DNA of 58,220 nt from a virus (lineage: Duplodnaviria > Caudoviricetes), in the IMG/VR virus record IMGVR_UViG_3300042465_002836, positions 1-58,220 of that record. One strand, given 5' to 3'. This document shows positions 4,021-25,053 of this stretch, piece after piece. Numbering within the stretch: the first letter of the stretch is position 1; every line of letters begins with the position of its first letter. The notes beneath the pieces are model-generated. The model was not told where the DNA came from. It worked only from the letters and a program-made list of their open reading frames with translations, and ran no database searches. The translations under genes were made by a program, and so were the position numbers.

Positions 4021-4740
4021 ATGGGATACGGCTCACGGTCAGGTCGCGCCCGCACAAGCTCCGTTAATCCCCGGGCGCACGCAATATGCGACCGATGTGG
4101 GTTTCGCTATAACCATGACGATCTGCAATGGCAGTACGATTGGGCAGGGGCCTCCCTGATCAACCGAGGCATCTTGGTGTGCTCTCAGTGCATGGACGTG
4201 CCCCAGGAGCAGCTTCGGGCAATCATTGTGCCGGCAGACCCTGTGCCCGTCCTGAACCCCCGTATTGAGTACTTTGGCACATACTCATCCAACAACCGCC
4301 TGACCAACGGCACGCCTTCTGTAGACGCAGCCACAGGCCTCTCATCCCCCAGGGGCGATACCCGGATTACTGAGGATGACGCGACCCGCTCCACTCAGAT
4401 GACCGGCGCGGCGCCTGGCAGCCTCAACACGCTCCCAGGTACAGACCCGAACGCAGTCACATATCGCACTGTGACCAACGCTACAGACAATGGCTCGGGC
4501 CTGATCCGCCTGACTGTGGCAACGACAAACGGCATGATCACAAGCCAGAGAGTAACAGTTCAAGACGTTGGCGGCGTTACGGCGGCGTCCGGCAACTGGA
4601 CCATTACAGTTATCAACAACACGCAGATTGATCTTCAGTCTTCAGCGTTCTCTGGTACTTATACCTCTGGCGGATATGTGGTGAACAACCCCAGTCTGCC
4701 TTACAATTTCACTGAAGTGCCGAAGACGGGGACGCTCTAA
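4021..4740 (+). CDS. Zn-ribbon (CDRCG...CSQC) virion-block protein with a C-terminal FCCH-like beta domain
   Basis: Two CxxC motifs followed by a Thr-rich domain. Confidence 0.65.
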   Translation: MGYGSRSGRARTSSVNPRAHAICDRCGFRYNHDDLQWQYDWAGASLINRGILVCSQCMDVPQEQLRAIIVPADPVPVLNPRIEYFGTYSSNNRLTNGTPSVDAATGLSSPRGDTRITEDDATRSTQMTGAAPGSLNTLPGTDPNAVTYRTVTNATDNGSGLIRLTVATTNGMITSQRVTVQDVGGVTAASGNWTITVINNTQIDLQSSAFSGTYTSGGYVVNNPSLPYNFTEVPKTGTL

Positions 4741-7700
4741 TGGCGAATGTGCAAATTCCCAATCTCACCCCGGCAATCTCGCTGAACGGCACCGAGGAGC
4801 TTGAGGCTGTCCAGGCGTCATCTTCTGTACGGATTACTACGGCCCAGATCGCGTCCTACACCCAAGCGACCTATCCCGTCACCGGCATCACCAGCATCGC
4901 CACGGCAGCCCCAATTTCAGGCGGGACAATCACCTCAAGCGGGACAATCAGCCTTCAGACGGCAGGCGTGACCAACACCTATCTGGCGGCAATGTCTGCC
5001 GGAACGGTAAAAGCCAATGTCACCGGCAACGCGGCTAGCCCCACCGATGCGACCCCGAGCGCGGTTCTGGATATCATTGGCTCCTCGACGGGGTCGATGC
5101 TCTATCGAAGCCCCTCCGCATGGGCGCAACTAAGCCTTGGCTCGACTGACCAGATCCTGACCGTTAGCGGCGGCATCCCTGCTTGGGTGACCCAGATCCC
5201 TTCTGGCAGCATCCCGGCAACCGGCGTCACGGCGGGAGCCTATGGTTCTGCTACTCAGGTCGCGCAATTCACCGTCCTGGCATCGGGTCAAATCAGCGCC
5301 GCATCAAATGTTGCCATTGCCATCCCGTCATCTCAGGTAACGGGCCTTGGCACGATGGCGGTCCAGAATGCTTCTGCCGTGGCAATTACGGGCGGAACTA
5401 TCGCTGGCGTAGGTATCAATAGCTCGACGATTGGCGCTGGCACGCCCTCGACTGGCGCATTCACGACCCTGACCGCCAATTCCAGCCTTAGCGTCACCGG
5501 CACGTCTGTGCTTGGCACCGTGACCTCGGGGACATGGAACGGCACCGCCATTGCCGTGGCGAACGGCGGGACTGGGGATACGACCGCATCAGGGGCGCGG
5601 ACCAACCTTGGCGCGGCGGCCTCTGGAGCCAATAGCGACATAACCAGCCTGTCTGGCCTGACATCTGCCTTGTCTGCTCCGCAGGGCGGCACGGGCTTTA
5701 CCTCGTACACCACGGGCGATCTGCTGTACGCAAACAGCGCAACGTCCCTCGCCCGCCTTAACGACGAGGCTGTCGGCAACGCCCTGATCTCTGGCGGCGT
5801 CGGCGTAGCCCCGGCATGGGGCAAGATCGGCCTCACCACCCACGTCTCTGGCACCCTTGCAGTGGGTAATGGAGGCACGGGCGCCACGACCCTGACGGGC
5901 TACTTGGTGGGCAATGGGACAAGCGCCGTCACCGCCGTGGCGACCATCCCCAACGCTGGCCTGACCAACAGTTCAATCACCATTGGCTCGACCTCAATTG
6001 CCCTTGGCGCAAGCTCACTGGTGCTGGCCGGTCTTACCACCGTCACGGTGACGCAAGACCCGACCACCAGCCTCCAGCTTGCTACCAAGCAGTATGTTGA
6101 TAACACCGTCTCAACGGTGTCCAACACGACCTATCACTTGGCGGTCACGTCCGCGACCACCGCAGCCCTGACGGCCACCTACAGCAATGGCACCGCAGGC
6201 GTCGGAGCCACCCTGACCAATGCAGGGGCGCAGGCGGCGTTCTCAATTGATAGCTATTCGCCAACCGCCACCAGTCGCGTTCTGATTAAGGACCAAGCCT
6301 CCGCGCTCCAGAACGGCATATACACTGTTACCACAGTGGGAACTGGCTCGACGAACTGGGTGCTGACCCGGGCCACTGACTTCGACACCCCGGGCACTGG
6401 GCCTAACTTTATCCAGACCGGCGCGGCGGTTTACATCAGTGATGGCACAATTAACGGCGCGACTTCGTGGCTGATGAACACGACCGGCACGATCACGGTC
6501 GGCACCACGGCGCTGAACTGGACGCAGATCTCATCGGCGGGCAACATTCAAGTCACCGCCCCGATCATCAAGACCGGCAACACCCTAAGCCTCGGCACCG
6601 TCACTGTTGCCAACGGCGGCACGGGCCTAACCTCCTATACGGCGTATGGCCTCTTGTACGCCCCCACCACCTCGTCTGTTGGCGACATCGCGCCCGGCAC
6701 GGTCAACTACCCCCTGGTGTCCACTGGCGCGTCCTCGGCTCCTGCCTACCAGCAGTTGAGCCTGACGGCTGGCGTCACGGGCATCCTGCCGGTGGCAAAC
6801 GGCGGCACCGGGACCAATGCAGCTTTCACGCTGGGGTCTGTCGTGTTTGCTGGGGCCTCGGGCAACTACGCGCAAGACAACGCCCAGTTCTTCTACGATG
6901 ACACGAACAACTACTTGGGCCTTGGCACGGCAGTCCCGAACACGCGCCTGACAATCATCTCGCCCACGCAGACAGTTGTTCCCGGCTCACTGCCTGCCGG
7001 TACTGACATCTTCATTGTGGGCGCTGATGGGGCTTTGACGCGCATCACGCAGGATGCCTACGGAACGGGCTTCTATCCGGCCTATACCGGGCGTGCAGCA
7101 CGCGGCACAGCAGCCTCCCCTACGGCCAGCCAAACCAACGATGACTTGGCGCAGTTCACTGGTCGCGGGTACGGCGCTAGCGCGTTCGGGCCCAACTCGA
7201 CCGGCATCCTTGCCTTCCACGCAGCCGAGAATTTCACCAACACGGCTCAAGGCACCTACGCCTCAATCCTGCTGGCGGCGACCGGCGCGACAACTGCCGT
7301 TGAAAGGTGGCGTTTTGGCCCTGCTGGTCAGCTTGGCATCGGCGGCGGCACCTTTGGCACCTCTGGCTATGTCCTGACCTCTGGCGGGGCCTCTGCGGCC
7401 CCCACATGGTCCCAGGTCAGTTTGTCTACGGGCGTCACGGGCGTCCTCCCCGTAGCCAATGGGGGCACCAACCTCTCATCTTACACGACCGGCGATCTGG
7501 TTTACGCCTCTGGCGCGACCACGCTGGCGGGCCTTGCGGACGTTGCCACGGGCAATGCCCTGATCTCTGGCGGCGTCGGAGTTGCCCCCAGCTACGGCAA
7601 GATTGGCCTTACGACCCATGTCTCAGGCACGCTGCCCATTGCCAACGGCGGCACGGCCCTCACAACCACGCCCACCAACGGCCAACTTCTGATCGGCAAC

Positions 7701-8939
7701 GGTACGGCCTACGCCCTTGCGGCCCTGACGCAGGGCACCGCGATCACGATCACTAATGGTTCCGGCTCCATCACGATTGATAACGCAGGCGTGACGGCGT
7801 TCTCGACCGGCACCACGGGCCTGTCTGTTAACGCCTCGACCGGCTCCCTGACGCTCTCAGGCACCCTGGTCGCGGCAAACGGCGGCACGGGCTTGACCAG
7901 CTATGCCGTGGGCGATCTGCTTTACGCCAGCACGACCTCTGCCTTGAGCAAGCTGGCTGATGTTGCCACCGGCAATGCGCTGATTTCTGGCGGCGTCGGG
8001 GTTGCGCCGTCATACGGCAAGATCGGCCTGACCACGCACATCACAGGCACCCTGCCAGTGGCGAACGGCGGCACCAACATCACCAGCTACACGACCGGCG
8101 ATGTTCTGTACGCATCAGCATCTGGCACGCTCTCTTCTCTGGCCGATGTCGCCACGGGCAATGCAATCATCTCTGGTGGCGTTGGCGTGGCCCCGTCCTA
8201 TGGCAAGATTGGCCTTACGACACATGTCAGCGGGACGCTAGCAGCAACTAACGGCGGCACTGGCTTCGCATCTTATGCAGTCGGCGATCTGCTTTATGCC
8301 AGCACTACAACGGCTCTCAGCAGGCTGGCAGATGTCGCCACCGGCAGCGTTCTGTTGTCGGGCGGCGTTGGCGTGGCCCCGGCATGGGGTCAGGTCAGCC
8401 TCACCGCTGCAGTGACCGGCGTCCTTCCCGCAGCAAACGGCGGCACGGGCGTTGCAAACTCCAGCACCATCACGCTGGGCGGCAACCTGACGCTCTCTGG
8501 TGCGTTTACCACCACGGTAACAGTTTCGGCCAACACAACAGTCACGCTTCCCACAACGGGAACGCTTGCCACGCTGGCGGGCACTGAAACCCTGACGAAC
8601 AAGCGCGTCACGCCTCGGGCAACCACTTCTGGCACGACCTCTGGCAACCAGACACCCACGGGCGACAGCAGCGACCAATACATCATGACGGGCCTGACCG
8701 GCGCGATCACGATGCTGGCCCCGTCTGGCACGCCTACCAACGGCCAGAAACTGGTCCTGCGCTTCCTTGACAACGGCACTGGTCGCGGCATCACATGGAC
8801 CACGTCAGCGGGCGGCTATCGCGCCCTCGGAACGACGCTTCCGACAACGACTGTAGCCAATAAGACCATCTATGTGGGCTGCATCTACAACTCGACATCA
8901 GTCTTCTGGGATGTCGTTGCCGTGACACAGCAGGCATAG
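4740..8939 (+). CDS. Long tail fibre
   Basis: 1399 aa, Thr/Gly/Ala-rich; many GTLPVANGGTG repeats; ATKQYVD and RVLIKDQ...QNGIY...LTRATD fibre motifs. Confidence 0.85.
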   Translation: MANVQIPNLTPAISLNGTEELEAVQASSSVRITTAQIASYTQATYPVTGITSIATAAPISGGTITSSGTISLQTAGVTNTYLAAMSAGTVKANVTGNAASPTDATPSAVLDIIGSSTGSMLYRSPSAWAQLSLGSTDQILTVSGGIPAWVTQIPSGSIPATGVTAGAYGSATQVAQFTVLASGQISAASNVAIAIPSSQVTGLGTMAVQNASAVAITGGTIAGVGINSSTIGAGTPSTGAFTTLTANSSLSVTGTSVLGTVTSGTWNGTAIAVANGGTGDTTASGARTNLGAAASGANSDITSLSGLTSALSAPQGGTGFTSYTTGDLLYANSATSLARLNDEAVGNALISGGVGVAPAWGKIGLTTHVSGTLAVGNGGTGATTLTGYLVGNGTSAVTAVATIPNAGLTNSSITIGSTSIALGASSLVLAGLTTVTVTQDPTTSLQLATKQYVDNTVSTVSNTTYHLAVTSATTAALTATYSNGTAGVGATLTNAGAQAAFSIDSYSPTATSRVLIKDQASALQNGIYTVTTVGTGSTNWVLTRATDFDTPGTGPNFIQTGAAVYISDGTINGATSWLMNTTGTITVGTTALNWTQISSAGNIQVTAPIIKTGNTLSLGTVTVANGGTGLTSYTAYGLLYAPTTSSVGDIAPGTVNYPLVSTGASSAPAYQQLSLTAGVTGILPVANGGTGTNAAFTLGSVVFAGASGNYAQDNAQFFYDDTNNYLGLGTAVPNTRLTIISPTQTVVPGSLPAGTDIFIVGADGALTRITQDAYGTGFYPAYTGRAARGTAASPTASQTNDDLAQFTGRGYGASAFGPNSTGILAFHAAENFTNTAQGTYASILLAATGATTAVERWRFGPAGQLGIGGGTFGTSGYVLTSGGASAAPTWSQVSLSTGVTGVLPVANGGTNLSSYTTGDLVYASGATTLAGLADVATGNALISGGVGVAPSYGKIGLTTHVSGTLPIANGGTALTTTPTNGQLLIGNGTAYALAALTQGTAITITNGSGSITIDNAGVTAFSTGTTGLSVNASTGSLTLSGTLVAANGGTGLTSYAVGDLLYASTTSALSKLADVATGNALISGGVGVAPSYGKIGLTTHITGTLPVANGGTNITSYTTGDVLYASASGTLSSLADVATGNAIISGGVGVAPSYGKIGLTTHVSGTLAATNGGTGFASYAVGDLLYASTTTALSRLADVATGSVLLSGGVGVAPAWGQVSLTAAVTGVLPAANGGTGVANSSTITLGGNLTLSGAFTTTVTVSANTTVTLPTTGTLATLAGTETLTNKRVTPRATTSGTTSGNQTPTGDSSDQYIMTGLTGAITMLAPSGTPTNGQKLVLRFLDNGTGRGITWTTSAGGYRALGTTLPTTTVANKTIYVGCIYNSTSVFWDVVAVTQQA

Positions 8940-12511: not shown

Positions 12512-13234
12512 ATGACCACCGGATTGACTTATAATGATTACGTCAACCAGATCTCTACTCTGGCGGTGGTTTCTCCGACTGACTCAGCGTTCCTGACGAT
12601 CCTGCCCCAGATGCTGACCTATGCAGAGAACAGGATCTACCGCGACCTCGACTTCCTCTCGACCACCCAGGCGTTGACAGGGTACAATTTCAGCATTGGT
12701 TCGCGCAGCCTTGCGATCCCAGCAAACGATTTTGTGGCGCTGCAGCAGATCAACGTAATCACGCCGGCAAACGTTGACATAGCAAACAGCGGCACCAGGG
12801 TGACGCTCCTGCCCGCAACTAAAGAATTCATCGACAACGTGTACCCTAGCTCCGCATCTGCTGGGGTTCCCGCCTACTTTGCTCTGTTTAACCAGAGCAC
12901 CATCTTGGTGGGTCCATGGCCTGATCAGGCTTACTCTGTTGAGGTGGTTGGGACGTATCGGCCAGCATCTCTCTCGGCTGATCCGGCAACGCAAACCACG
13001 TTCATCAGCTTGTATCTGCCCGATCTCCTGATCATGGCTTCAATGGTCTATATCTCAGGCTACCAGCGAAATTTTGGTCGAGCGAATGACGATCCTCAGA
13101 TGGCCGTCTCTTACGAGAGCCAATACAAGACCCTGATGCAGGGCGCGATGGTTGAGGAGGCCCGCAAGAAGTTTCAGTCTTCTGGCTGGACCTCAATGTC
13201 GCCGTCGCCCGTCGCAACTCCGACCAGGGGATAA
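12512..13234 (+). CDS. Tail tubular protein A/adaptor-like
   Basis: AENRIYRDL, G.P.YFA, VGPWPD..Y; precedes the nozzle gene. Confidence 0.65.
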   Translation: MTTGLTYNDYVNQISTLAVVSPTDSAFLTILPQMLTYAENRIYRDLDFLSTTQALTGYNFSIGSRSLAIPANDFVALQQINVITPANVDIANSGTRVTLLPATKEFIDNVYPSSASAGVPAYFALFNQSTILVGPWPDQAYSVEVVGTYRPASLSADPATQTTFISLYLPDLLIMASMVYISGYQRNFGRANDDPQMAVSYESQYKTLMQGAMVEEARKKFQSSGWTSMSPSPVATPTRG

Positions 13235-13237
13235 ACC

Positions 13238-16177
13238 ATGCCCCACGCAAGCCTCAAGGTCATTCCCGGGGTTGATCAGAACAAGACGCCCGCCCTCAAT
13301 GAAGCGGCAATCTCGCAGAGCCAGCTTATTCGTTTCATCCCGGACCGAAGCGGCCTTGGCTTGCCTCAGAAGCTGGGCGGCTGGACCAAGTTCTTTGCCA
13401 GCGCAATCAGTTCAACCATCCGCAATATGTGGGCCTGGGCTGACTTAAACGGGACTAACTATCTGGCGGTAGGGGCGGAAACGTCTCTCAACACAATTCA
13501 GCCTGGCGCTCTACTTACGTCCCAAGCAATTACTGACGTTGCCTATACTATTTCTAAGTCCATTACGTCAATCAGCGGCAATGGAACTACTGTTACTTTG
13601 GGGTTTTCTGGGTCGTATACATTCCCTGTTGGAACAAACATTACTGTTTCTGGCACATCTGTTGCTGGATATGATGGAACTTATGTTGTAACGGCATCCA
13701 CTACCACGTCCGTAAGCTATGCAAATACCACAACAGCAGCAGCCACTGGCGGGACGGTAAGTTCAGATACCAACGTGGTGACCCTCACATTTGCCGGTCC
13801 ATACACCTTCCCGGTCGGAACAAACATTGTCGTGACCGGCCTGGTCCCGACCAGCTACAACGGCAATTATGCCGTGCTAGCATCAACGTCCACTACGGTC
13901 AGCTACCTAAGCCCCATTACCGGGGCGGCGACCACGACAGGAAGCGCCGTCTCCGCTTATGGCGATGTTCTCAACGCCATCACCCCGCAGACCTTTACGG
14001 ATAGCTCAACTGTTCGTTTTGAGACTACGGCTGGAAGTTCTTTTGTCACGATTACTGACAGCGTCACCCAGTCCATAACTTCAGTTAGCGGAAATGGAGC
14101 CACCGTAACTCTGGGCTTTACTGGGCCATTTACATATTCGGTTGGCACTGTAATTACTGTTTCTGGGGTGTCTGTTGCTGGCTACAACGGCACATATACA
14201 GTAACCGCCTCAACCACCACATCAGTTAGTTACCGTAATTCTACAACTGCCGCAGCTAGCGGCGGAACTTTCTTTAATGCCAACTCTATTAGCAGCTACA
14301 CTTCTGTATATATTCAAACTCCAGTAAGTGTTGGCGGGCTTATTTTGTTTGGCGCGTACCAGTGTCAAGCGGTAAGTGCTACGGATTACATCATTCAGGC
14401 TCGAGATACACTGGGAAATCCTGAACTTGCTCTATGGACAACCGCATCCGAGACAATCACATCCGGCAGCGGTAGTGGCACGACCGCGACGATGAATTTT
14501 GCCGGCCCGTACACTTTTGAGGTCGGCAGCACTATTACCGTCGCGGGCGTGACGCCTTCTGGTTACAATGGCACCTACATCGTTACTTCGCCTACGACCA
14601 CGACATCGGTCAAATATGCCAACGCCACAACAGCCGCGGTAACCGTTTTCGGCACCGTCTCCAATTTTGGAGCGGTTCCACTATTCACCACAGCATCAGG
14701 GTCATCCTCCGTCACCCTTACTCTGTCCAATCACGGCCTTACGGTGGGCCGGGAATACCCAATCCTGGTTGCCGTGACGGTCGGCGGCCTGACCATGCCG
14801 GTGGGCAACTACATCGTCACGTCAGTGCCATCAGTGTATGAGTTCACGCTCCAGGCCCCATCCCCGGCGACATCCACTGCGTCCGTCTATCAGAACGGCG
14901 GGCTGGTTCAGTTCCAGTATTTTGTCGGCCTCGGCCCTATAACAACGGTCGGCGGAACTTACGGCCAGGGCAATTACGGCGATGGCCCATATGGCACGTC
15001 CTCCGCGCTCTCGCCTGGCAACACTGGAACGGCGATCACTGCCACTGACTGGACGCTCGACAATTACGGCAGCCTGCTGGTCGCTGTGCCGTATGGTGGG
15101 CCGATCTACATCTACGACCCCACCTCTGGCTCTTCCATTGCCACGATCATACCGACCGCGCCGGCAGCTAACGCCGGGGCTTTCGTGGCAATGCCCCAGA
15201 GGCAAATTGTGGCTTGGGGGACAACCTTCAGCGGCATCCAAGACCCTCTCCTGATCCGTTATTCAGACGCAAACGATCTGACCGCTTGGATAGGCACGAC
15301 CGTCAATCAGGCGGGCAGTTATGAAATTCCCCGAGGGTCTGAGATTGTCGGTGCGGTGCAGGCCCAGCAGCAGGGCCTGTTCTGGACTGACTTGGCGCTC
15401 TGGGCCATGCAATACGTTGGCCCCCCCTTGGTGTACGGCTTTAACGAGGTCGGCGTCGGCTGCGGCTTGATTGCGCCCAAGGCGGTCACCGTCATGAGCG
15501 GCGTGGCCTATTGGATGAGCCAAAGCCAGTTCTTCCGGTATGCCGGGGGCGGGGTTGAGCCAATCCTCTGCCCAATCTGGGACGTGATTTTCCAAGATCT
15601 GGACACCACCAAGCTTCGTGAGATCAGGGTGGCCCCAAATAGCCGTTTCAATGAGGTCGGCTGGTTCTACCCCACGACCGATCCGGTTCATCCGGTCAAG
15701 TACGCCAAGTACAACATCGGCCTAAACACCTGGGACTTTGGGAACCTTCACCGTACAGCTTGGATCAACCAATCGGTCCTTGGGCCGCCCATCGGGGCCT
15801 CTGGCGGGACAATCTACCAGCACGAAACCTCCCCTGACGCTGATGGCGAGCCGATGTTGTCGAGCTTCCAAACAGGGTATTTTGCCCTAGACGAGGCGGA
15901 TCAGAAAACCTTTGTGGACCAAATCTGGCCTGACATGCGGTGGGGCTATTACGGCGGGTCGCAAGACGCGACAGTAAGCATCACTTTTTTCGCCACTGAT
16001 TTTGCCGGGCAGACCCCAACGCAGTACGGGCCGTTCCCGGTGACCCAATCCACTACCTACGTCACGCCCAGGATGCGTGGCCGCCTTGTCTCAATCGCGG
16101 TGTCGAGCAGCGACTTGGGCTCGTTCTGGCGTCTGGGCAATATTCGCTACCGTCTCCAGCCTGATGGCCGGTTCTAG
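13238..16177 (+). CDS. Tail nozzle (tubular B/P22 gp10-like) with inserted beta-domain repeats
   Basis: 979 aa; IPGV..., QKLGGW, DPLLIRYSD, NQAG, WTD, CGLIAP, R.RGR...FWRLG.IRY..QPDGR. Confidence 0.8.
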   Translation: MPHASLKVIPGVDQNKTPALNEAAISQSQLIRFIPDRSGLGLPQKLGGWTKFFASAISSTIRNMWAWADLNGTNYLAVGAETSLNTIQPGALLTSQAITDVAYTISKSITSISGNGTTVTLGFSGSYTFPVGTNITVSGTSVAGYDGTYVVTASTTTSVSYANTTTAAATGGTVSSDTNVVTLTFAGPYTFPVGTNIVVTGLVPTSYNGNYAVLASTSTTVSYLSPITGAATTTGSAVSAYGDVLNAITPQTFTDSSTVRFETTAGSSFVTITDSVTQSITSVSGNGATVTLGFTGPFTYSVGTVITVSGVSVAGYNGTYTVTASTTTSVSYRNSTTAAASGGTFFNANSISSYTSVYIQTPVSVGGLILFGAYQCQAVSATDYIIQARDTLGNPELALWTTASETITSGSGSGTTATMNFAGPYTFEVGSTITVAGVTPSGYNGTYIVTSPTTTTSVKYANATTAAVTVFGTVSNFGAVPLFTTASGSSSVTLTLSNHGLTVGREYPILVAVTVGGLTMPVGNYIVTSVPSVYEFTLQAPSPATSTASVYQNGGLVQFQYFVGLGPITTVGGTYGQGNYGDGPYGTSSALSPGNTGTAITATDWTLDNYGSLLVAVPYGGPIYIYDPTSGSSIATIIPTAPAANAGAFVAMPQRQIVAWGTTFSGIQDPLLIRYSDANDLTAWIGTTVNQAGSYEIPRGSEIVGAVQAQQQGLFWTDLALWAMQYVGPPLVYGFNEVGVGCGLIAPKAVTVMSGVAYWMSQSQFFRYAGGGVEPILCPIWDVIFQDLDTTKLREIRVAPNSRFNEVGWFYPTTDPVHPVKYAKYNIGLNTWDFGNLHRTAWINQSVLGPPIGASGGTIYQHETSPDADGEPMLSSFQTGYFALDEADQKTFVDQIWPDMRWGYYGGSQDATVSITFFATDFAGQTPTQYGPFPVTQSTTYVTPRMRGRLVSIAVSSSDLGSFWRLGNIRYRLQPDGRF

Positions 16178-16186
16178 GAGTAGAAA

Positions 16187-16627
16187 ATGGCCGAAGGTGG
16201 CAATCAAAACATGGTTTCTGGCGGCGGGGATATCCTCACCGTCCAGAAGAATGGCGTCATTGCCATCAACAACCTCGCCGTCTTCTTTAAGCGGATTGCG
16301 GATAATCTTGATCAGATATCTCTCAATTCAGGCCCGTCTACGACATCAACGACGGTTGCCGCCAGTACAACCCAGCTTATTGTTGCGGGGACTGGTCGGC
16401 TGTTTGCTGTTTCTATCCCGGCGCACAGCGGCAGCGGTCAAGTGTTTGTCTATGACAGCGCCACAACCGGCGCGGTCGCCGCGACCAACTTGATCTTTGC
16501 CTGCCTCCCGGCAAACACCACTGGCTGGCTGTCCTATTACGCAGTCAATTTGGCCTATTCTAAGGGCCTCGTTATTAAGACCGACGCCAGCATGAACTGC
16601 GCCATTGCGTACACTCCGACCCCGTGA
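16187..16627 (+). CDS. Hypothetical virion-block protein
   Basis: 146 aa, aggag RBS. Confidence 0.6.
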   Translation: MAEGGNQNMVSGGGDILTVQKNGVIAINNLAVFFKRIADNLDQISLNSGPSTTSTTVAASTTQLIVAGTGRLFAVSIPAHSGSGQVFVYDSATTGAVAATNLIFACLPANTTGWLSYYAVNLAYSKGLVIKTDASMNCAIAYTPTP

Positions 16628-16635
16628 GGCCAGAC

Positions 16636-17835
16636 ATGCCCCTATCCAAAGGCCGCAGCCAGAAGACGATCAGCCGGAACGTCTCTGAGATGGTTCGCTC
16701 TGGTCACCCGCAAGATCAGGCGGTGGCGGCTGCGCTGGACGTGGCGCGCCGGGTCGCCAAGGGAGATGGCGGCAGCCTCTCTGATATGAACTCTGACACC
16801 CACAGCATCATCGACGGCCTCAACCGCAGTAAGAATGCCCTGATGAATGGGCTCCCATCTATTCCGGCCCGGGTCATCAGCAGCAATGACATTGACCACC
16901 TGCAACTGTCTCCAGAGCGCGCCGCCGCCTTGGACAAGATGGCTGAAGTCAACCGCAAAAAGGGGGACTTCTTCTCGGCCAGCACGTTTGGTGATGAAGA
17001 CGGGCGGCGATGGAGCGTCGAGGATGTCTTGAACTACGCCGAGAACAAGCCCGTGGTCAAATTGCCCACCAAGGGATTTGTCAAAGACCAAGTTGATCAA
17101 TGGTGGCAGGGCAACGAAGAACGGGCAAAGAAGGCAATTCCCTCAGAGCAGCACCCCATCCTTGTCCTAAAGCACCGCACCGGGAAGGCCCGTGGTGGAG
17201 GCCTCTATGCCAACATCCACGCCAAGCAGGAGCGCATTGCCCGCGGGTCGAAAGAGAAGATGCGGAAGCCCGGGTCTGAAGGCGCGCCTACAGCCGATGC
17301 TTTCAAGGCATCCGAGCGTACCGCCAAGGCGGGCGGCGGGATGCTAGAGTATGCCAAGGGCGGAATGCCCCGTATGGGCGGCACCAAGACCAAGGTCCAC
17401 GTTGGCCCGATCCACAGCACGGTGGCCGGTCGCACTGACCATCTTCCGATCCATGTCCCGTCTGGGGCCTACGTCATTCCTGCCGACATCATTAGTTCAA
17501 TGGGCGAGGGCAACACGATGGCGGGTTTCAAGGTGGCAAAGTCCATCTTCTCTGCCGGGGCTTACGGCCAGAAGAAGCTGGGGGCCGGGATGCCTTACGG
17601 CGGCGGCGGCCTTCCCTACGGCGTGCCATCGCCCGGTAAAGCGGAGGGCGGCCCTACAGACACCGTCCCAATCGTCGCAGCCGGTGGCGAATATGTGATA
17701 TCACCTGAAGATGTTTCCGCCCTAGGCAGCGGAAGCCTAGATGACGGGCACAAGATACTGGATGAGTTCGTCAAGCAGCAGCGGTCAAAGACCGTCAAGA
17801 CATTGAAGAAGCTGCCTGGTCCAAAGAAGGACTAG
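16636..17835 (+). CDS. Modular GG-motif protein (putative internal virion polyprotein)
   Basis: Modules separated by KGDGG, KARGG, KAGGG, YAKGG, KAEGG; duplicated D..P....G.YVI....S.LG.G domain at the C-term. Confidence 0.75.
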   Translation: MPLSKGRSQKTISRNVSEMVRSGHPQDQAVAAALDVARRVAKGDGGSLSDMNSDTHSIIDGLNRSKNALMNGLPSIPARVISSNDIDHLQLSPERAAALDKMAEVNRKKGDFFSASTFGDEDGRRWSVEDVLNYAENKPVVKLPTKGFVKDQVDQWWQGNEERAKKAIPSEQHPILVLKHRTGKARGGGLYANIHAKQERIARGSKEKMRKPGSEGAPTADAFKASERTAKAGGGMLEYAKGGMPRMGGTKTKVHVGPIHSTVAGRTDHLPIHVPSGAYVIPADIISSMGEGNTMAGFKVAKSIFSAGAYGQKKLGAGMPYGGGGLPYGVPSPGKAEGGPTDTVPIVAAGGEYVISPEDVSALGSGSLDDGHKILDEFVKQQRSKTVKTLKKLPGPKKD

Positions 17836-17857: not shown

Positions 17858-18382
17858 ATGGAATTGAAAGTGCGAGTGGGCACGCCTGACGATGTTGATC
17901 AGTGCATGTCATTGGCGATGCAGGCATGTGAAGAAAATGGGTTCTTGGTTCCAGAGCCAACAATGATTCTGGAGCATATCTGGTCTGCCCTGAACCAACA
18001 CCAGGGCATTATCGGGATTGTAGGAGAGCCTGGCGGACTGGTTGAAGGTGCCGTTCTTCTGAGGATTGGCAATCTGTGGTACGCCCCTCAAGAGGTAATT
18101 GAAGAAAAGGGCATTTTCATCCATCCTGAGTACAGAAGTGCGAAGGGCGGCAGAGCGCGCCGTCTTTGCGAATTCAGTAAACAAGTTGCCGACACGCTTG
18201 GCCTGCCTCTGGTGATTGGCGTTCTGTCCAACCTCCGCACCCAGGCCAAGGTCAAGATGTACCAGAGGCAATTTGGCGAACCCGCAGGGGCCTTCTGGCT
18301 TTATGGGGCCGAGACAGGGAAATGGCATGAGCCATCCTTGGAGCAAACGCAAGAAGCGGGCAAGCTCTTGCCTGTCACTTGA
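17858..18382 (+). CDS. GNAT-like acetyltransferase-fold protein (position of T7 gp13-like internal protein)
   Basis: VRVGTPDD, WY...IEEKGIFIHPEYR...RARRL, KVKMYQR.F. Confidence 0.65.
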   Translation: MELKVRVGTPDDVDQCMSLAMQACEENGFLVPEPTMILEHIWSALNQHQGIIGIVGEPGGLVEGAVLLRIGNLWYAPQEVIEEKGIFIHPEYRSAKGGRARRLCEFSKQVADTLGLPLVIGVLSNLRTQAKVKMYQRQFGEPAGAFWLYGAETGKWHEPSLEQTQEAGKLLPVT

Positions 18383-18393
18383 AAGGCTAAAAC

Positions 18394-21300
18394 ATGGGCG
18401 GCGGCGGCAAAGGCGGAACTTCATCTTCATCGGTCAAGATACCGAAAGATGTCCTGCGGCGTTATAACCAAGTCAACAAACGTGCCGAAGAAGTCGCCGC
18501 GCAGCCGTTCCAGCGTTATACGGGGCAATTTGTTGCGGGTATGAACCCTCAACAACTGGCGGGCATTGAGGGCATTAACAATGCCGCAAATGTCGGTCAG
18601 AGTTATTTCAATGAGGCTGGTGGCCTTATGCGCGCTGGGTCTGGCACTGCCACGCCTGGCCAGCTTGATATTGATCGTTACTTGAGCCCCTACACTGAGA
18701 ATGTGGTTAACGCCACGCAGCGCACCCAAGAACAACAGAACCGCCAGCAGGCCACGCAACTGGCCGGGAATGCCATTTCTCAGGGTGCGTTTGGCGGCGA
18801 CCGCGCCGGGATTGCACAGGCCAACCTTGCCGGGCAGCAGGCCCTCTCAAACCAGCAGATCCTCGCCCAGCTTCGCCAGCAAGGCTACACGCAGGCTGTG
18901 GGCACGGCCCAGCAGCAGCAGGGGCTGGCATATCAGGCGCAGGCGGCTGATCTTGCCCGCAAACTTGCGGCAGGGCAGGGCATAGGCGGCCTCGGCGCGC
19001 AGGCCCAATCTTCTGCCCTGCAGGGCGCGCAAGCCCAAATCGGCGCCGGTACGCTGCAACAGCAGACTGAGCAGGCTGACTTGTCCGCCCAGTACAACCA
19101 GTTCCTTCAGGAACAAGGTTATCCCTTCCAGGTGGCCCAGTTCTTGGCAAACATCGCCATGGGCACAGGCGCATTGTCCGGGTCCACGACCACGACCACG
19201 CAGCCCGGGGGCTTTTTCTCAGACGAGCGGCTCAAGGAAGACATCAAGCCCGTTGGCAAGACGTTTGACGGCCAGGACATCTATTCTTACCGTTACAAGG
19301 GCGACAACCGGACCCAGATCGGCCTTCTGGCCCAAGAGGTCGAGCGGCATCACCCCAAGGCTGTTGGCCTCGCTGGCGGCTACAAGACCGTGGACTATGA
19401 CCGCGCCACTGAGAAGGCGGCGGATCGAGGGCACTTCTATCGTGGCGGCTTGGTCGCCTCCCAAGGCGGCGGCGTTGGCTATGGCAATGCTGGCGAAGGG
19501 TTTGCGGACGGCGGGATGCCTATTGGCGGCGATATCTACCAAATCCTTGCCGCACAGAAGGCCATGTTCCCGTATCAGACGGCTGGCATGTACGGCCATC
19601 AGCCGGGTACAGGGGCTTACGGCGTTGCCACCCCTGAGCAGAATATCGGGGATCTAGCCAACGTATTTCATTCGCGCTCCGCTGAACCGCCGCAGCAACA
19701 GAAGTCTCCGTTCCAGCAGGCCTTGGACACCGGCACCCAAGTCACTTCGACCTACAAGGGTGGCAAAGACATATACAACACTGCCGGCGACATTTACGAC
19801 TGGGGCAGGGACCAGTATTATTCTACCTTTACAGATCCTCTTATGGCGTCAACCCCGGGCAAAAGAGCTTCCGGCGGCCTTGTTCGTCCCAATTACGACT
19901 TGGGCGGATCTTTGCCTTACGGGCAGTCTCAAGGATCTGTTCTGTCTGATGTTGTCAAAGATACTGAGGCTGACGCCAACAGAGCTAAGTCTTCAGCCCC
20001 CGCATCTCAGTCGGCCCCTACCAGTGGCGGTGGCGATGGCGGCCTTGGTCAGATAGCCGGCACGACCTCTGGTCTAATCAATATGGGCCAAGACATCGGT
20101 TCGCTATTTGGCCCAGCCAAGGAAGGCTTGGAGGCCGCAAAGCTCGCTGGCGCCCTTGGCGAGGCAGGGGGAGCGGCTGCTGGCCTTGGCAGTGCAGGCA
20201 GTGCTGCCGCTGGCCTTGGCAGTGCCGCTGCAGGCGCAGCCGGTGCAGGGACTGCTGCCGCTGGCGCTGCTGGGGCCGCCGGCGCCGCTGGCGGGCTTGC
20301 CGGGATTGGGTCTTCAATCGCTTCGGCCTTGCCTTTCTTGGCGTTTCTTTCAGACAAACGCCTCAAAGAAGACATCCGGCACATCGGCAAGACCTTTGAT
20401 GGGCAGTCGGTCTATTCGTATCGCTATAAGGGCGATCCCCGCACCCAGATCGGGCTGTTGGCGCAGGAGGTCGAGCGCCATCACCCTGATGCTGTTGGCA
20501 GTGCGGGGGACTACAAGACGGTTGATTATGACGCTGCGACCAAGGATGCAGCCAAGCGGGGGCATTTTGCCTCGGGCGGTTTGGCTGGTCGGCGCGGTTA
20601 TGATGTTGGTGGAACTCCAATTACAGACCAACAGCTTCAAGATGCAGTTGATAAGGCCAGAGATCCTGGGCTCTTTGACCGCATTGCCAACGCCACGCCA
20701 GGCTTCATCCGCCGGGGTGTAGAGGCGGTGCCGGGTGCGCTTGATAAGCTATCAAAGGCTGACAACCTGATCCCGCTGGTTTCAGGCATTGCGGCTATGG
20801 GCACGGCCCCGACGCGAGAACTTGGCGTAGCCCTTGCCGCCGGTTTGGGTGCGGGCGCTCAGTCCGCCCAGCAGATGCGCCAGTTCGGCCTTGAGCAGGG
20901 CAGGCTTGGCCTGACGGCTCAACAAGTTGCTCTGCAACGCCTGAAAGCCGGTGCTGAACTGACCTCAATGCTCAGGAAAATAAGGCTGGGCGAGTCAATG
21001 GCTACTGGCGCGCCTCAAACAACTTATAATGATATCTTGGGTGGCCAAGATTTTGCTGACGCATTCCAGAAGTCGCTAGGGGGCTTCCCCACTATTGGTG
21101 GCGGATCTACGACTGTACCTGAAATCCCGACTGCAGGCGGCCTTGTCCCGGCTGGAGGCGCTGCCCCAAGCCTTGGCGGGTCAATGCCTGCAGAGATGCC
21201 GTCACCCACAGCAGCCGCTCCCGGCCTGGCTGGAGGCCCTGCCGTTGGCGGCGGTGCCGCTCCAGGCTTGGGCGGAGCCCAGCCAGCTACTGCCCCGGCC

Positions 21301-22803
21301 TCTCCCGCCGCGCCTGGCGCTGCGCCCGTTGCGCCGGCAATGCCGCCCGCAATTTCGCCCGCAGCAGCCGCGGCTAGCGCAATGCCTGCCGGCAATAGTC
21401 CGTTCTGGCAGGGCGTCCCCCTTAATCAAAATATGCCCAGGCTTGTGGAAAACTATAAGGCGGCCTTGGCTTCAGGAGAATTCGCTGCGGCTGAGACCAT
21501 CAGCAACTCCATGAACGGCATCATGGAGCGCGGCGTTGTCTATAAAGATGGGCAAGTCGTACCTATCCCTGGTTTTGCTGAAGCCAAGGCACGTCAGGTA
21601 GCCATAGAAGCCGCTTCCAGGACTACCGCAGAACGCAGTGCTGCACTTCCCTTTATTGCGCCAGAACTCCGGGCACGGGCCGGGGTTGAGATTGAGACCG
21701 GCACCAGAATTATGCCTGACGGCAGTGTTGTTCGGATACCGCCTGGCGCTGGAGGAGCCCCTGCGGGCGCTCCCGGCGGCGCTCCCGGCGCGGCGCCAGC
21801 GGCAGGCGGCAGACCGGCCGCGGGCAGCGCGACAGCCCCTGTTGAAGCTACTCCCGTCACGCCGGAAGAACAGCCGCCTACTCGTACTAAAGCGGAAGTA
21901 GATCCATCGTTTGGCACAATCAAAACGGCCATCCCCCAAGCTCCTGCTGGCGGCGGCCTTCCCCAAGTGAATTTGCCGCCGGGAGCCGTTCAGCAACAAC
22001 CTTCGCCGGCACAGGCCCAGCAGATTGAGCAAGATGCCGCTTTGGCTAAAGCGACACTGGGCAATCAGGCAAACATTCAAACGTCAATCCACCGCTCTTT
22101 TGCTATGGCTGCGGCGTATAAATCCGTTGCTGCCGGCAGGGTGCCAGACACAGCCCGCCTTATTGCTGAATACGCCACTTCTATAGGCGCCCCTGAAGTC
22201 GCGCAGCAGATTTTGGGCGGCGATATGGATGCGGTGGCGGCAGCAAACTGGTTCCAGAAGAACAAAGTCAACGCCACTATGGAGAACTTGAAGGCCCTCA
22301 ACCCACAGTTCACGCAATCTGAATTTGCCGAAATGAGTGAGTCTGGGTCAGCAACACTAAATCTTGACCCTGTTGCCGCGCACAAACTTGTCAGCGAGCA
22401 GCTTGGCACGCTCATGGCGGCGGACCAGTTCCAGCGAGATTGGCGCGTGGCTCAGACGCAGGGCTGGACCAGTTTGTCGGCCTTCCAGAACGCCTGGACC
22501 GAAGCCAACCCGATGGATGATTTCATCAAGACGGCGGCCTCGCAGATCGGCACCTTCAGGGGTATGGACGTTCCCCCGCCTGACAAGATGACCGTTGGCG
22601 CAACATACGTCTTGCCAGATCGTATGGACCCCCAGGCGGCTGAAGCATACGCCGCCGTGGGCATAAACCCTGGCGACACGTTTGTTTACCTTGGCCCACA
22701 ATACCAGCCTGAGAAGCTCGACAGACCTTTGACACAGAAAGAGCTTTCCCCTGCAGACTACCGCAAGACCCATGGAATACAGGTTCCTGAGACACGGCAG
22801 TGA
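18394..22803 (+). CDS. DNA ejection/internal virion protein with two internal peptidase S74 (auto-cleaving chaperone) domains
   Basis: MGGGGKGG start, Q-rich helices, GAFGGDR; SDERLKEDI...GLLAQEVE...YKTVDY at about 19219-19401 and again at about 20350-20532. Confidence 0.8.
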   Translation: MGGGGKGGTSSSSVKIPKDVLRRYNQVNKRAEEVAAQPFQRYTGQFVAGMNPQQLAGIEGINNAANVGQSYFNEAGGLMRAGSGTATPGQLDIDRYLSPYTENVVNATQRTQEQQNRQQATQLAGNAISQGAFGGDRAGIAQANLAGQQALSNQQILAQLRQQGYTQAVGTAQQQQGLAYQAQAADLARKLAAGQGIGGLGAQAQSSALQGAQAQIGAGTLQQQTEQADLSAQYNQFLQEQGYPFQVAQFLANIAMGTGALSGSTTTTTQPGGFFSDERLKEDIKPVGKTFDGQDIYSYRYKGDNRTQIGLLAQEVERHHPKAVGLAGGYKTVDYDRATEKAADRGHFYRGGLVASQGGGVGYGNAGEGFADGGMPIGGDIYQILAAQKAMFPYQTAGMYGHQPGTGAYGVATPEQNIGDLANVFHSRSAEPPQQQKSPFQQALDTGTQVTSTYKGGKDIYNTAGDIYDWGRDQYYSTFTDPLMASTPGKRASGGLVRPNYDLGGSLPYGQSQGSVLSDVVKDTEADANRAKSSAPASQSAPTSGGGDGGLGQIAGTTSGLINMGQDIGSLFGPAKEGLEAAKLAGALGEAGGAAAGLGSAGSAAAGLGSAAAGAAGAGTAAAGAAGAAGAAGGLAGIGSSIASALPFLAFLSDKRLKEDIRHIGKTFDGQSVYSYRYKGDPRTQIGLLAQEVERHHPDAVGSAGDYKTVDYDAATKDAAKRGHFASGGLAGRRGYDVGGTPITDQQLQDAVDKARDPGLFDRIANATPGFIRRGVEAVPGALDKLSKADNLIPLVSGIAAMGTAPTRELGVALAAGLGAGAQSAQQMRQFGLEQGRLGLTAQQVALQRLKAGAELTSMLRKIRLGESMATGAPQTTYNDILGGQDFADAFQKSLGGFPTIGGGSTTVPEIPTAGGLVPAGGAAPSLGGSMPAEMPSPTAAAPGLAGGPAVGGGAAPGLGGAQPATAPASPAAPGAAPVAPAMPPAISPAAAAASAMPAGNSPFWQGVPLNQNMPRLVENYKAALASGEFAAAETISNSMNGIMERGVVYKDGQVVPIPGFAEAKARQVAIEAASRTTAERSAALPFIAPELRARAGVEIETGTRIMPDGSVVRIPPGAGGAPAGAPGGAPGAAPAAGGRPAAGSATAPVEATPVTPEEQPPTRTKAEVDPSFGTIKTAIPQAPAGGGLPQVNLPPGAVQQQPSPAQAQQIEQDAALAKATLGNQANIQTSIHRSFAMAAAYKSVAAGRVPDTARLIAEYATSIGAPEVAQQILGGDMDAVAAANWFQKNKVNATMENLKALNPQFTQSEFAEMSESGSATLNLDPVAAHKLVSEQLGTLMAADQFQRDWRVAQTQGWTSLSAFQNAWTEANPMDDFIKTAASQIGTFRGMDVPPPDKMTVGATYVLPDRMDPQAAEAYAAVGINPGDTFVYLGPQYQPEKLDRPLTQKELSPADYRKTHGIQVPETRQ

Positions 22804-22812
22804 GGACTGAAA

Positions 22813-25053
22813 ATGGCAACCGAAGTCGATCCAAACAGCCCCTGGGCAAAGTATTCCGCCAAGCCCTCGCCTGCCGCGCAGCCCACGCCCAAGCCCACGC
22901 TGGACGTTAATCAAGCTGCCATAGACAGCGGGACGGTCACCCCAGACGTTCCCGCTGCGGCCGCCATGCGGCCTACGACTGAGTCCACTGCGATATCGCC
23001 TCTCGTAGGTTTCAATCGAGGCTTGGCAAACGTGGTGGGCGCCCTCCCTGACGCCGTCAGCTACGCTATGAGGAAAACCCTGCCAGAGGGATATGCCCCG
23101 AAGTCATCTGCTGACACTGTCATGGGCAGCGACTGGCTCAAGAGCCTCATGCAAGTTGACCAGCCAAGATTTCAGCCCAGAAGCAATATTGAGAACGTGC
23201 TTCAATCGTCTGGGGCGGCTGTCCCATTGGCTCTCTCAATCCCACTTGCAGCAAGGGGCGTTGCAGCCCAGCTTCCAAGCGCAATTTCAAGGATGGCTCC
23301 CACCACTGCCGGCGTCATCCAGACTATTGGCAAGGGCTCACCCACGACGGTCGGTCAGACAGCCAGCCAAGCAACCGGGGAGTTTGCCGGAAGTGCGCTT
23401 GGCACCACTGCAGAGACTTTTGCCCCAGATCCTCTGAAGCCCGCCGCAAACGTACTAGGAAATCTGGTTGGCGGCTTAAGTGCCAATGTTGGCACCGACC
23501 TTTTGGGTTCGCGGTTTTCATATGACCCCAGTTCCGTTGCGGCTTCTGCGAACCGTCTGGGCGTTTCTTTGCCCAACGCCGCCGTGAACCCGTCCCAGCT
23601 TGTTCAGCGTGCGGGCCAAACGCTCAAGATCATTCCTTGGGGCGGTGAACCCTTGTCGCAAGCGTCCGCAAGGTCATTGGGTGAACTGCAGGCGTCTGCA
23701 GCGGGGCTAGTTTCTCGCTTGGGCGGCGGAACCGCAGAACAAGGTGGACAGGCGGCAAAGACGGCCTTGGTTGACTGGATGGGGCCAAAGACAAGTAATG
23801 CGATTGCGGCAAAATATGATGCTGTTGATAACGCCATCACTAACCCCAACGCCACAACACCATTGCTTAATGCAAATCGAATAGCTCAAACGTTGCAGCA
23901 AGAATATGACGCGCAGGGCCTTTACAATTCTCCAATTCCTGCGGTCAAGTTTATTGAGTCTGCGCTTTCTACTCCTCTAACATATGAGGGTGTTAAGGGG
24001 CTAAGAAGCAGGGTTGGCGAGCTTTTAAAAAACCCTCAAGCCATGACCAGCCAAGGCATTTCAAATGGCGAATTGAAACGCATTTATGCCGCTTTGACTG
24101 ATGATCTTGGGCAAGCAGCAGAGAATGCTGGCGGTCCTGCCGCCAAACAAGCCTGGACTGAGGCAAATTCTTTTACAAGGCAAATCAAAGCCACAAATGC
24201 GCGCCTTGCCAAGCTTATGGGCGGCCCAAATGTAGATCCTGACCAAGTTCCGGCGGAAGCCGTGTTTGGGCGCTTGCTGACCGCGGCTTCATCTACAAGA
24301 GGCGCTGATTTGCGCTTGCTGCGGACGGCGAAGAGCATTGTGCCGCCTGATCAATGGAACGAATTTTTGTCTGGGACAATCTCTCAAATGGGCCGCACGG
24401 CTAAAAATGAATTTAGCCCAGGTTCTTTTGCGACATCTCTCAACAAAATGCCCCCCGCAAGCCGGGACATTATGTTTGGTCCAACGGGAAGCCCAACCAG
24501 AGACGCAATTGAAGACATTACAAATGTTGCCAAATTGGGCCAGAAGCTTGAGGGCTTTACCAATCCTTCAGGCACCGCCCAGAATATTGTTATGGCGGGT
24601 GGCGGCGTGGGCCTCTACACAAACATGGCGGAAACGCTTGTAGGCCTTGTAGGGACAAGAGGGCTGTCTGAATATCTGTCAAATCCGGTCAGTGCCCGTC
24701 AGATCAGTAGATGGTCCCGCGCATATCAGGACGCAGTGACAAACAGCCGGGGCGATGCGGATACATTCCGCCGGCTCATGGTGAACCCGACAGCGTCCTT
24801 GATGGCTGAGAACCCAGACAGAGAAGTGCGCGAGGCCCGCCAGGCACAACAACAAGCCGGGGGCCGCGCTGACGGCGGTCGTGTAGGCTATCGCGCTGGC
24901 GGCCGCATCCTTGATCACGCAAGCCAGGCTGGCGCCTTGGTGCGGGCAGCCGAGACGGCAAAGAAGCGGATCAGCCAAACGACCGAACCGCTTCTGGAGA
25001 TGCCGGATGAGGCCGTGGTTAAGGCTTTGAGCGTGGCAAATGAGAATATCTAG
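22813..25053 (+). CDS. Putative DNA ejection/internal virion protein
   Basis: 746 aa, helical and Ala-rich; NPSGTA motif; C-term RADGG/YRAGG; last gene of the virion block. Confidence 0.7.
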   Translation: MATEVDPNSPWAKYSAKPSPAAQPTPKPTLDVNQAAIDSGTVTPDVPAAAAMRPTTESTAISPLVGFNRGLANVVGALPDAVSYAMRKTLPEGYAPKSSADTVMGSDWLKSLMQVDQPRFQPRSNIENVLQSSGAAVPLALSIPLAARGVAAQLPSAISRMAPTTAGVIQTIGKGSPTTVGQTASQATGEFAGSALGTTAETFAPDPLKPAANVLGNLVGGLSANVGTDLLGSRFSYDPSSVAASANRLGVSLPNAAVNPSQLVQRAGQTLKIIPWGGEPLSQASARSLGELQASAAGLVSRLGGGTAEQGGQAAKTALVDWMGPKTSNAIAAKYDAVDNAITNPNATTPLLNANRIAQTLQQEYDAQGLYNSPIPAVKFIESALSTPLTYEGVKGLRSRVGELLKNPQAMTSQGISNGELKRIYAALTDDLGQAAENAGGPAAKQAWTEANSFTRQIKATNARLAKLMGGPNVDPDQVPAEAVFGRLLTAASSTRGADLRLLRTAKSIVPPDQWNEFLSGTISQMGRTAKNEFSPGSFATSLNKMPPASRDIMFGPTGSPTRDAIEDITNVAKLGQKLEGFTNPSGTAQNIVMAGGGVGLYTNMAETLVGLVGTRGLSEYLSNPVSARQISRWSRAYQDAVTNSRGDADTFRRLMVNPTASLMAENPDREVREARQAQQQAGGRADGGRVGYRAGGRILDHASQAGALVRAAETAKKRISQTTEPLLEMPDEAVVKALSVANENI

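Follow-up and report, generated by a model that had tools for sequence, protein, structure and literature searches.

A predicted self-processing ejection polyprotein with two internal Peptidase_S74 domains in a complete short-tailed phage record

The 58,220-bp virus record IMGVR_UViG_3300042465_002836 (Duplodnaviria; Caudoviricetes), analysed here over its whole length and referred to below as the window, is complete, with direct terminal repeats, and contains on the + strand at 18394..22803 (stop codon at 22801–22803) an open reading frame (ORF) of 1469 amino acids (aa), P0001, with two internal Peptidase_S74 domains. Pfam PF13884 matched P0001 over two stretches with 74.7 bits (E 7.1e-21; cut-off 22), and a six-frame search of the record with the same family gave exactly two matches, both within this ORF, at nucleotides (nt) 19219–19365 (44.8 bits, E 1e-12) and 20350–20496 (41.8 bits, E 9e-12), each covering positions 1–57 of the 58 in the profile. 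The first domain (intramolecular chaperone auto-processing, ICA; aa 276–352, 19219..19449, + strand) opens with SDERLK at Ser276 (nt 19219), whose predicted dyad partner is Lys281, and the second (aa 653–729, 20350..20580, + strand) with SDKRLK at Ser653 (nt 20350), paired with Lys658; the predicted cuts fall just before the two serines. An initial annotation made from the letters alone had pointed to two near-identical S74 domains retaining S-D-x-R-L-K, and its coordinates proved exact. Both units were modelled confidently as monomers by AlphaFold2 (AF2), with a predicted local distance difference test score (pLDDT) of about 90 or more, above 90 over aa 280–340 in the first and about 90 in the second. 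By hidden Markov model (HMM) score and catalytic residues, the two domains are members of Peptidase_S74.

The residues that define the dyad and its motif do not vary. S276, D277, R279 and K281 were invariant in 66/66 aligned sequences and again in 55/55, as were S653, D654, R656 and K658 in 66/66. Among two-copy proteins, the first Ser and the Lys at position six were kept in 114/114 first and 114/114 second copies, and a second sample, selected independently of S74, had them in 124/124 first and 40/40 second copies. Within P0001 the copies share 81% identity over 72 aa (63% over 111 aa with flanks) and 74% over 224 nt of DNA, spaced 1131 nt apart and in frame, and this combination of DNA and protein identity argues that both have been kept by selection. 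Moreover, the nearest neighbour of a first copy was the first copy of another protein in 108 of 114 cases, and that of a second copy another second copy in 105 of 114. Judged from these comparisons, the pair is an old duplication retained by selection and not a recent repeat; recent tandem duplication, the other origin considered, was ruled out by the 74% DNA identity together with this copy-to-copy kinship. In some related lineages the second domain does resemble the first of the same protein; in L056, for example, the likeness is close, which suggests an internal duplication in that lineage.

The two domains leave three further segments. Segment A (aa 1–275; 18394..19218, + strand) starts with MGGGGKGG and has a high content of Gln, Ala and Gly; its predicted structure is all-helical (AF2 helices at 93–129, 137–194 and 202–257, with low pLDDT). 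It finishes in the conserved end FQVAQFLANIAMGTGALSGSTTTTTQPGGFF, and its predicted product is 28.6 kDa. Segment B (aa 353–652; 19450..20349, + strand), with 20% Gly and 18% Ala, would form a 37.7-kDa product (276–652) together with the first S74 domain. Its last part is a hydrophobic helix (aa 631–652; nt 20284–20349) that abuts Ser653, and aa 631–654 constitute the sole clear hydrophobic peak of P0001 (Kyte–Doolittle maximum 1.67); the Ala/Gly-rich hydrophobic stretch that had been reported ahead of the second domain is thus real and ends in this peak. An imperfect 30-nt-periodic repeat at nt 20143–20304 encodes an Ala/Gly-rich tract (AAGLGSAGSAAAGLGS...) 5′ of the helix. Segment C (aa 730–1469; 20581..22800, + strand), predicted to form with the second S74 domain an 83.8-kDa product of 817 residues (653–1469), has a conserved hydrophobic stretch at ~aa 793–830 and two Pro/Ala/Gly low-complexity tracts (~aa 881–1010 and 1116–1215). 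The AF2 model of aa 653–1469 had a mean pLDDT of 47.9 and was mostly of low confidence, save for a small helical domain at ~aa 1332–1392.

A whole-protein sequence search of the PDB gave no match, and likeness to T7 gp15/gp16 or P22 gp7/gp16/gp20 was found neither there nor in the structure searches (Foldseek, VIA), which returned generic helical matches only. A profile built from alignment A2 and run against the PDB over the S74 region weakly matched 6f45, the distal subunit of a long tail fibre (E 0.23), and 3gud, the GA-1 neck appendage (E 0.3); the RecA multi-copy fusion constructs at the top of that search were discarded as summation artefacts, at ~5 bits per stretch and an i-Evalue of 90–140. 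NCBIfam had no match for P0001, the adjacent acetyltransferase or the neighbouring genes, megablast of the S74 gene against phage records gave none, and the ESM Atlas offered unnamed viral clusters (0.92) and, as a weak lead, Inj_translocase (0.86).

Glycine pairs accompany both domains. FYRGG (aa 348–352; nt 19435–19449) and FADGG (aa 370–374) follow the first, and FASGG (aa 725–729; nt 20566–20580) and YDVGG (aa 736–740) the second, as the initial annotation had listed, and we found an additional bipartite copy at aa 490–505; segment B thereby has bipartite motifs at aa 345–374, overlapping the tail of the first S74 domain, and at aa 490–505, and segment C one at aa 725–740. G373, G374, G495 and G505 were invariant in 66/66 sequences, and G728, G729 and G740 were kept in at least 90%. 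The pattern [FY]A.GG, a motif defined post hoc, occurs eight times in the 61 genes of the window against 1.44 expected, a value that 0 of 1000 within-protein shuffles reached, and all eight lie in virion-module genes (13238–16177, 16624–17835, 18394–22803, 47548–53427 and 53450–55039), the carriers including the 1959-aa polyvalent, 403-aa and 529-aa proteins. This enrichment and the invariant glycines would suit the proposal, made at the outset, that the motifs are capsid-loading tags cut off the cargo by S74 before ejection. That proposal is not supported, and we consider it very unlikely: cuts before Ser276 and Ser653 would leave every GG motif on the two downstream fragments and only fragment A free of them, and the GG linkers persist in relatives without the S74 at the junction concerned, which shows that they belong to the linker and not to the S74 unit. 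Furthermore, in related loci [FY]A.GG was present in the S74 gene in 68/69 cases, in the gene two positions upstream (−2) in 15/67 and in the next gene downstream (+1) in just 2/51, so that it is no general tag of neighbouring virion proteins. Instead, the motif is possibly a docking site or a protease site. Other glycine pairs were seen at the end of the 746-aa protein encoded next to P0001, which terminates in GYRAGG, and in the tail of the portal protein, which has RGGLVPPGG.

P0001 lies in a tail and ejection block whose order is SU10-type adaptor, nozzle, 146-aa gene, 403-aa gene, GNAT-type acetyltransferase, S74 gene and 746-aa gene, with holin and endolysin genes 5′ of the adaptor. The tail adaptor (12512–13234, + strand; Pfam SU10_adaptor) and a nozzle-like virion protein of 979 aa (13238–16177, + strand) mark the start of this block (12512..16177). 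The best PHROG for P0001, at aa 6–341, was phrog_4287, ‘DNA ejection protein’ (E 4.9e-32), and the match spans profile positions 6–389 of 392, indicating a PHROG family of about 390 aa that terminates in S74. The assignment to the ejection proteins given in the initial annotation is therefore supported by both the gene block and the family. S74 domains usually reside in external tail fibres and tailspikes, relatives of P0001 bear database names such as ‘tail fiber domain-containing protein’ and ‘putative tailspike protein’, and PHROG tail-fibre families match the S74 parts. Nonetheless, that P0001 should itself be such a fibre is scarcely credible: the tail-fibre PHROG matches are limited to the S74 region; Pfam and AF2 gave P0001 neither a receptor-binding nor a beta-helix domain, the remainder being helical or disordered; peptidoglycan hydrolase domains, lysozyme and SLT among them, occur in homologues; the gene follows those for the nozzle and the GNAT-type protein, and its homologue in Sinorhizobium phage phiM5 precedes internal virion proteins; and a separate fibre-like gene (1399 aa) lies elsewhere in the window, at 4740–8939.

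To gauge the family, segment A (aa 1–275, devoid of S74) was searched against 1.84 billion representatives (50% clustering level) and matched 5253 proteins at E ≤ 0.001, of which 2861 reached ≤ 1e-10 and 1477 reached ≤ 1e-30. Among the 138 listed matches of at least 1000 aa, 84 had one S74 domain, 40 had two and 14 had none, and the rarity implied for the two-domain layout in the initial annotation accordingly did not hold. With the whole protein as query, a word-index search scored 8000 candidates and returned 1465 matches, and an HMM built from the copies counted two S74 domains in 113 and one in seven of the 120 matches listed, a sample that favours two-copy proteins, the query itself having two. 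Of the 80 IMG/VR loci listed from a scan with patterns from alignment A1, in which at least 581 of 607 pattern stretches encode relatives, 59 had complete ORFs, 38 with one S74 domain and 21 with two; the same search with a single protein gave one weak locus, the alignment being needed to reach the family. One-domain and two-domain forms are thus both common in uncultured phages. In a set of species-representative genomes, all 19 related loci (19/19) were on contigs of metagenome-assembled genomes and none in isolates, and cultured members with the fused form were almost absent from the collections searched. A search of 50,697 phage records gave a single full-length relative, MW202675, the record of an uncultured phage of 61 kb; its 1185-aa homologue bears the annotation ‘internal virion protein D’, has one S74 domain and an SLT domain, and is encoded 3′ of an acetyltransferase. 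Given the evidence for an ejection-type protein and the size of the family, ‘tail fiber domain-containing protein’ is probably a wrong annotation for thousands of genes.

Comparison of these relatives revealed two fixed junctions with a common layout of hydrophobic helix, optional S74 and Gly-Gly linker. In two-domain proteins the second S74 lies exactly between the hydrophobic helix and the GG linker; in one-domain relatives the helix (for instance ..ALPFLAAL) joins the linker (GGVAGR.GY..G) directly; and in members with no S74 the conserved end of segment A (..TTQPxGFF) does so. A close pair illustrates this: L056, with two S74 domains, and L073, with one, show 81% identity in their first 455 aa and have the sequence beyond the junction in common, the second S74 being present in L056 only. 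On a FastTree phylogeny of segment A (131 rows, S74 columns left out), copy number changed at least 31 times, compared with a mean of 46 after shuffling, and 0 of 200 shuffles were as low as 31; the nearest neighbours of P0001 were one two-copy and one one-copy protein. Branch support here is only SH-like, and an exchange of modules by recombination would mimic gain and loss. S74 units therefore appear, from these alignments, to behave as cassettes at the two junctions.

A further variable site follows the second domain. Peptidoglycan hydrolases were scanned for with Pfam in 34 proteins (31 of the 120 listed homologues, with a hydrolase Pfam match, plus P0002, P0010 and P0122) and located in 32. 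In all 29 two-domain homologues with a hydrolase (29/29, rows preselected for hydrolase), the hydrolase starts 16–91 aa after the second S74, and six families alternate at this site (P0007–P0121): GH108, GH24, SLT, Hydrolase_2, M15 and VanY. In three one-domain proteins with a hydrolase, it lies 250–394 aa after the S74.

Parts of P0001 also exist as single genes. Sinorhizobium phage phiM5 gp27 (468 aa, S74 at 391–444) is 29% identical to aa 92–335 of P0001 (E 2e-23), carries the GenBank note ‘detected in phage particle proteome’, and is followed by gp28, an ‘internal virion protein/exolysin’, beyond which gp29 and gp31 also carry an internal virion protein annotation. Planktothrix phage Pag-Yong1 encodes a 316-aa S74 protein. 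Brucella phage Tb gp23 (328 aa) has a C-terminal S74 after a hydrophobic helix like the one preceding Ser653, and its gene lies 3′ of an acyl-CoA N-acyltransferase gene and two genes 5′ of that for the peptidoglycan hydrolase gp25. Metagenomic contigs of 17–35 kb also encode stand-alone forms that end exactly with S74 (P0218, P0225, P0241, P0221 and P0213), many other ‘short’ matches having been left out of this count as they resemble frame-shifted or truncated genes. On this comparison, the pieces of P0001 correspond to separate genes of some cultured phages, namely those for an S74-terminated virion protein, an exolysin and other internal virion proteins. As in P0001, S74 stands at the end of a module in phiM5 gp27, which shares the N-terminal domain, and in Tb gp23, which shares the helix before S74; whereas the stand-alone forms end after S74, the ORF in the window continues via a second module and a second S74 into an 817-residue third part. 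The genes for phiM5 gp27, Tb gp23, the Pag-Yong1 protein and the PHROG 4287 proteins adjoin an acyltransferase and/or internal virion protein genes, like that for P0001, and in the window, MW202675, Tb and phiM5 alike the S74 gene is placed after the adaptor and nozzle (tail tube) genes. P0001 also resembles the internal virion protein D of T7 gp16/phiKMV type in being large and encoded after the tail tube genes. That type carries a peptidoglycan hydrolase, as do homologues of P0001 but not P0001 itself.

We compared this arrangement with the S74 proteins whose processing has been characterised. The fibre proteins (endosialidase endoNF, K5 lyase, the T5 L-shaped tail fibre and the GA-1 neck appendage) share with P0001 the PF13884 domain, the S-D-x-R-x-K start and the Ser-Lys dyad, which is S911/K916 in endoNF and S587/K592 in MyRF (PMC8326128). 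In these fibre proteins a single S74 domain sits at the C-terminus of an external beta-helical fibre and is cut off from it (PMC8326128). In P0001, by contrast, two internal copies of ~77 aa follow helical or hydrophobic segments of an internal virion protein and are predicted to stay with the downstream part. In this respect, P0001 is closer to MYRF/MrfA, where an internal S74/ICA domain precedes a long C-terminal region and where, according to the same paper, cleavage is active only in the trimer and separates the N-terminal part from the downstream membrane fragment, on which the ICA domain remains, as we predict for P0001; a C-terminal coiled coil is described there as the main driver of trimerisation (PMC8326128). 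MYRF differs in being eukaryotic, in having one copy and an upstream beta-helical stalk, and in releasing a transcription factor, with no known role in a virion. In Foldseek, the MyRF ICA domain (7dc3_B) ranked fifth, at a non-significant E of 0.73. The placement of S74 in P0001 thus departs from that of the canonical fibre chaperone and resembles that of MYRF.

Taken together, the HMM match, the dyad and the gene context make it the best reading, to which we assign a probability of roughly 0.65, that P0001 is a self-processing internal virion (ejection) polyprotein of a short-tailed phage, cut into three. This part of the initial annotation, a self-processing chain with at least three products, stands as a prediction of three, with the shedding of GG motifs removed from it. 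P0001 would be translated as a single 150-kDa chain, both S74 domains would assemble as trimers, and trimer assembly would activate the Ser-Lys dyads to cut just before Ser276 and Ser653, as occurs in endosialidase and MYRF. Three products in a fixed 1:1:1 ratio would result: the helical A (aa 1–275), the first S74 with the Gly-rich B and its hydrophobic-helix end (aa 276–652), and the second S74 with C (aa 653–1469). In contrast to tail fibres but as in MYRF, each S74 would remain N-terminal on the downstream fragment, and each cut would expose a hydrophobic C-terminal end on the upstream fragment. The head would presumably carry the products, which on expulsion would form a channel across the cell envelope.

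Several observations weigh against this. What precedes each S74 is predicted by AF2 to be helical and not a triple beta-helix, and a crude heptad test gave no coiled-coil signal in segment A, 101 of 300 shuffles reaching the observed value. A Foldseek search with the model of aa 1–360 found nothing at E ≤ 0.001, a VIA wide structure search with that of aa 653–1469 gave only generic helical matches (Z ≤ 6.4), and P0001 is without a peptidoglycan hydrolase domain (Pfam, E ≤ 0.1), unlike many of its homologues. A stable trimer inside the tail channel would need unfolding or threading to pass. Finally, relatives have zero, one or two S74 domains, with close relatives differing, so that cutting at these junctions is dispensable in the family or done another way; and the units are short (~77 aa), with only short C-terminal helices (aa 335–338 and 340–344 in the AF2 model) before the GG linker. 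These last two points would also suit a purely structural role, in which S74 serves as a nucleus for trimerisation and folding and the 150-kDa chain stays uncut, or is cut at one site, in the virion: relatives with zero, one or two domains at the same junctions show that the segments can work covalently joined, and the short domains want most of the C-terminal helical part. Such a role would not need the invariance of the dyad Ser and Lys and of the motif Asp and Arg in both copies, however, and Ser and Lys are indispensable for cleavage in all the characterised S74 proteins quoted in PMC8326128, and we hold it unlikely. Short S74 forms do exist as natural C-termini, Brucella phage Tb gp23 ending 66 aa after its S74 Ser. 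A prediction of three copies of aa 137–356 as a complex scored 0.00 against a mark of 0.42, a result that speaks neither for nor against a trimer, the fold of the partner being uncertain.

The gene just upstream of P0001 encodes a 174-aa GNAT-type acetyltransferase (17858..18382, + strand; phrog_1249 acetyltransferase, 1.5e-7; Pfam Acetyltransf_7 weak at 0.0048, below cut-off) and ends 12 nt before the start of the S74 gene. Among 78 related loci (L007–L086), 68 have a homologue that ends less than 400 nt 5′ of the S74 gene, and an acetyltransferase or acyltransferase gene is likewise paired with the S74 gene in MW202675 and Brucella phage Tb. We noted that the ejection proteins begin with M-G-G-K-[TS] in 101 of 138 cases and with MSG, MAG or MCG in the remainder; a small residue at position two is typical of proteins that undergo removal of Met and then N-terminal acetylation or acylation. 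The adjacent GNAT-type enzyme may thus be a putative modifier of the N-terminus of the ejection protein. In the Bcep22-like phage JC1, an acetyltransferase gene lies directly 5′ of that for a virion-associated protein (gp63–gp64), with no S74 listed for gp64.

Directly 3′ of P0001, at 22813..25053 (+ strand), is the 746-aa gene, which has no family match and whose product is, by position, a further internal virion protein; the gene at this place in related loci has a median length of 776 aa. The 403-aa protein (16624–17835) matches two very short PHROG families, phrog_2423 at aa 5–48 and phrog_16028 at aa 193–235, and may be a composite of small conserved peptides; its positional equivalent in relatives has a median length of only ~197 aa. 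Further along the window are a C-5 cytosine DNA methylase gene (37891–39477; Pfam DNA_methylase, E 1.5e-31) and the portal gene (45218–47548), followed by that for the 1959-aa protein (47548–53427), which has an ART-PolyVal domain (ADP-ribosyltransferase of polyvalent proteins; 34.9 bits) and is probably a packaged multi-domain effector. By portal protein, the nearest cultured phages are Pelagibacter HTVC027P/023P (~35% identity), and next come Caulobacter RW-like, Roseobacter CRP-901 and Planktothrix phages (~28–32%).

The layout described here is widespread in uncultured phages, and we found no printed description of it: none of the papers found reports S74 in a protein of the ejection or internal virion class, supplements and the phiM5 paper (J Struct Biol 2017) being outside the scope of the search; papers on Brucella phages and Bcep22-like phages have S74 in tables only, and that on phiGT1 makes no mention of it. 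In an ejection-protein review (PMC8954989) the terms autoprocess, proteoly, polyprotein and trimer each have 0 occurrences. Little is understood of how short-tailed phages store and mature their ejection proteins and reassemble them as a channel through the envelope, and a built-in protease gated by assembly, if true, would explain how one gene gives several parts in a fixed ratio. It would also extend S74 from fibre folding to internal virion proteins, as a phage counterpart to MYRF processing, and the natural series of zero, one and two cassettes provides ready-made experimental controls. A bolder and more tentative proposal, possible though in our view doubtful, is that S74 units are portable, trimer-gated, self-cutting separators, gained and lost at the two junctions, by which phages switch between uncut, once-cut and twice-cut precursors of the ejectosome. 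If this were true, it would amount to gene fission and fusion at the protein level, supplying trimeric parts at 1:1:1 and hydrophobic ends for membrane attack, to which N-terminal acylation by the adjacent GNAT-type enzyme might be added, a parallel to the penetration proteins of non-enveloped animal viruses, which are acylated and cleave themselves.

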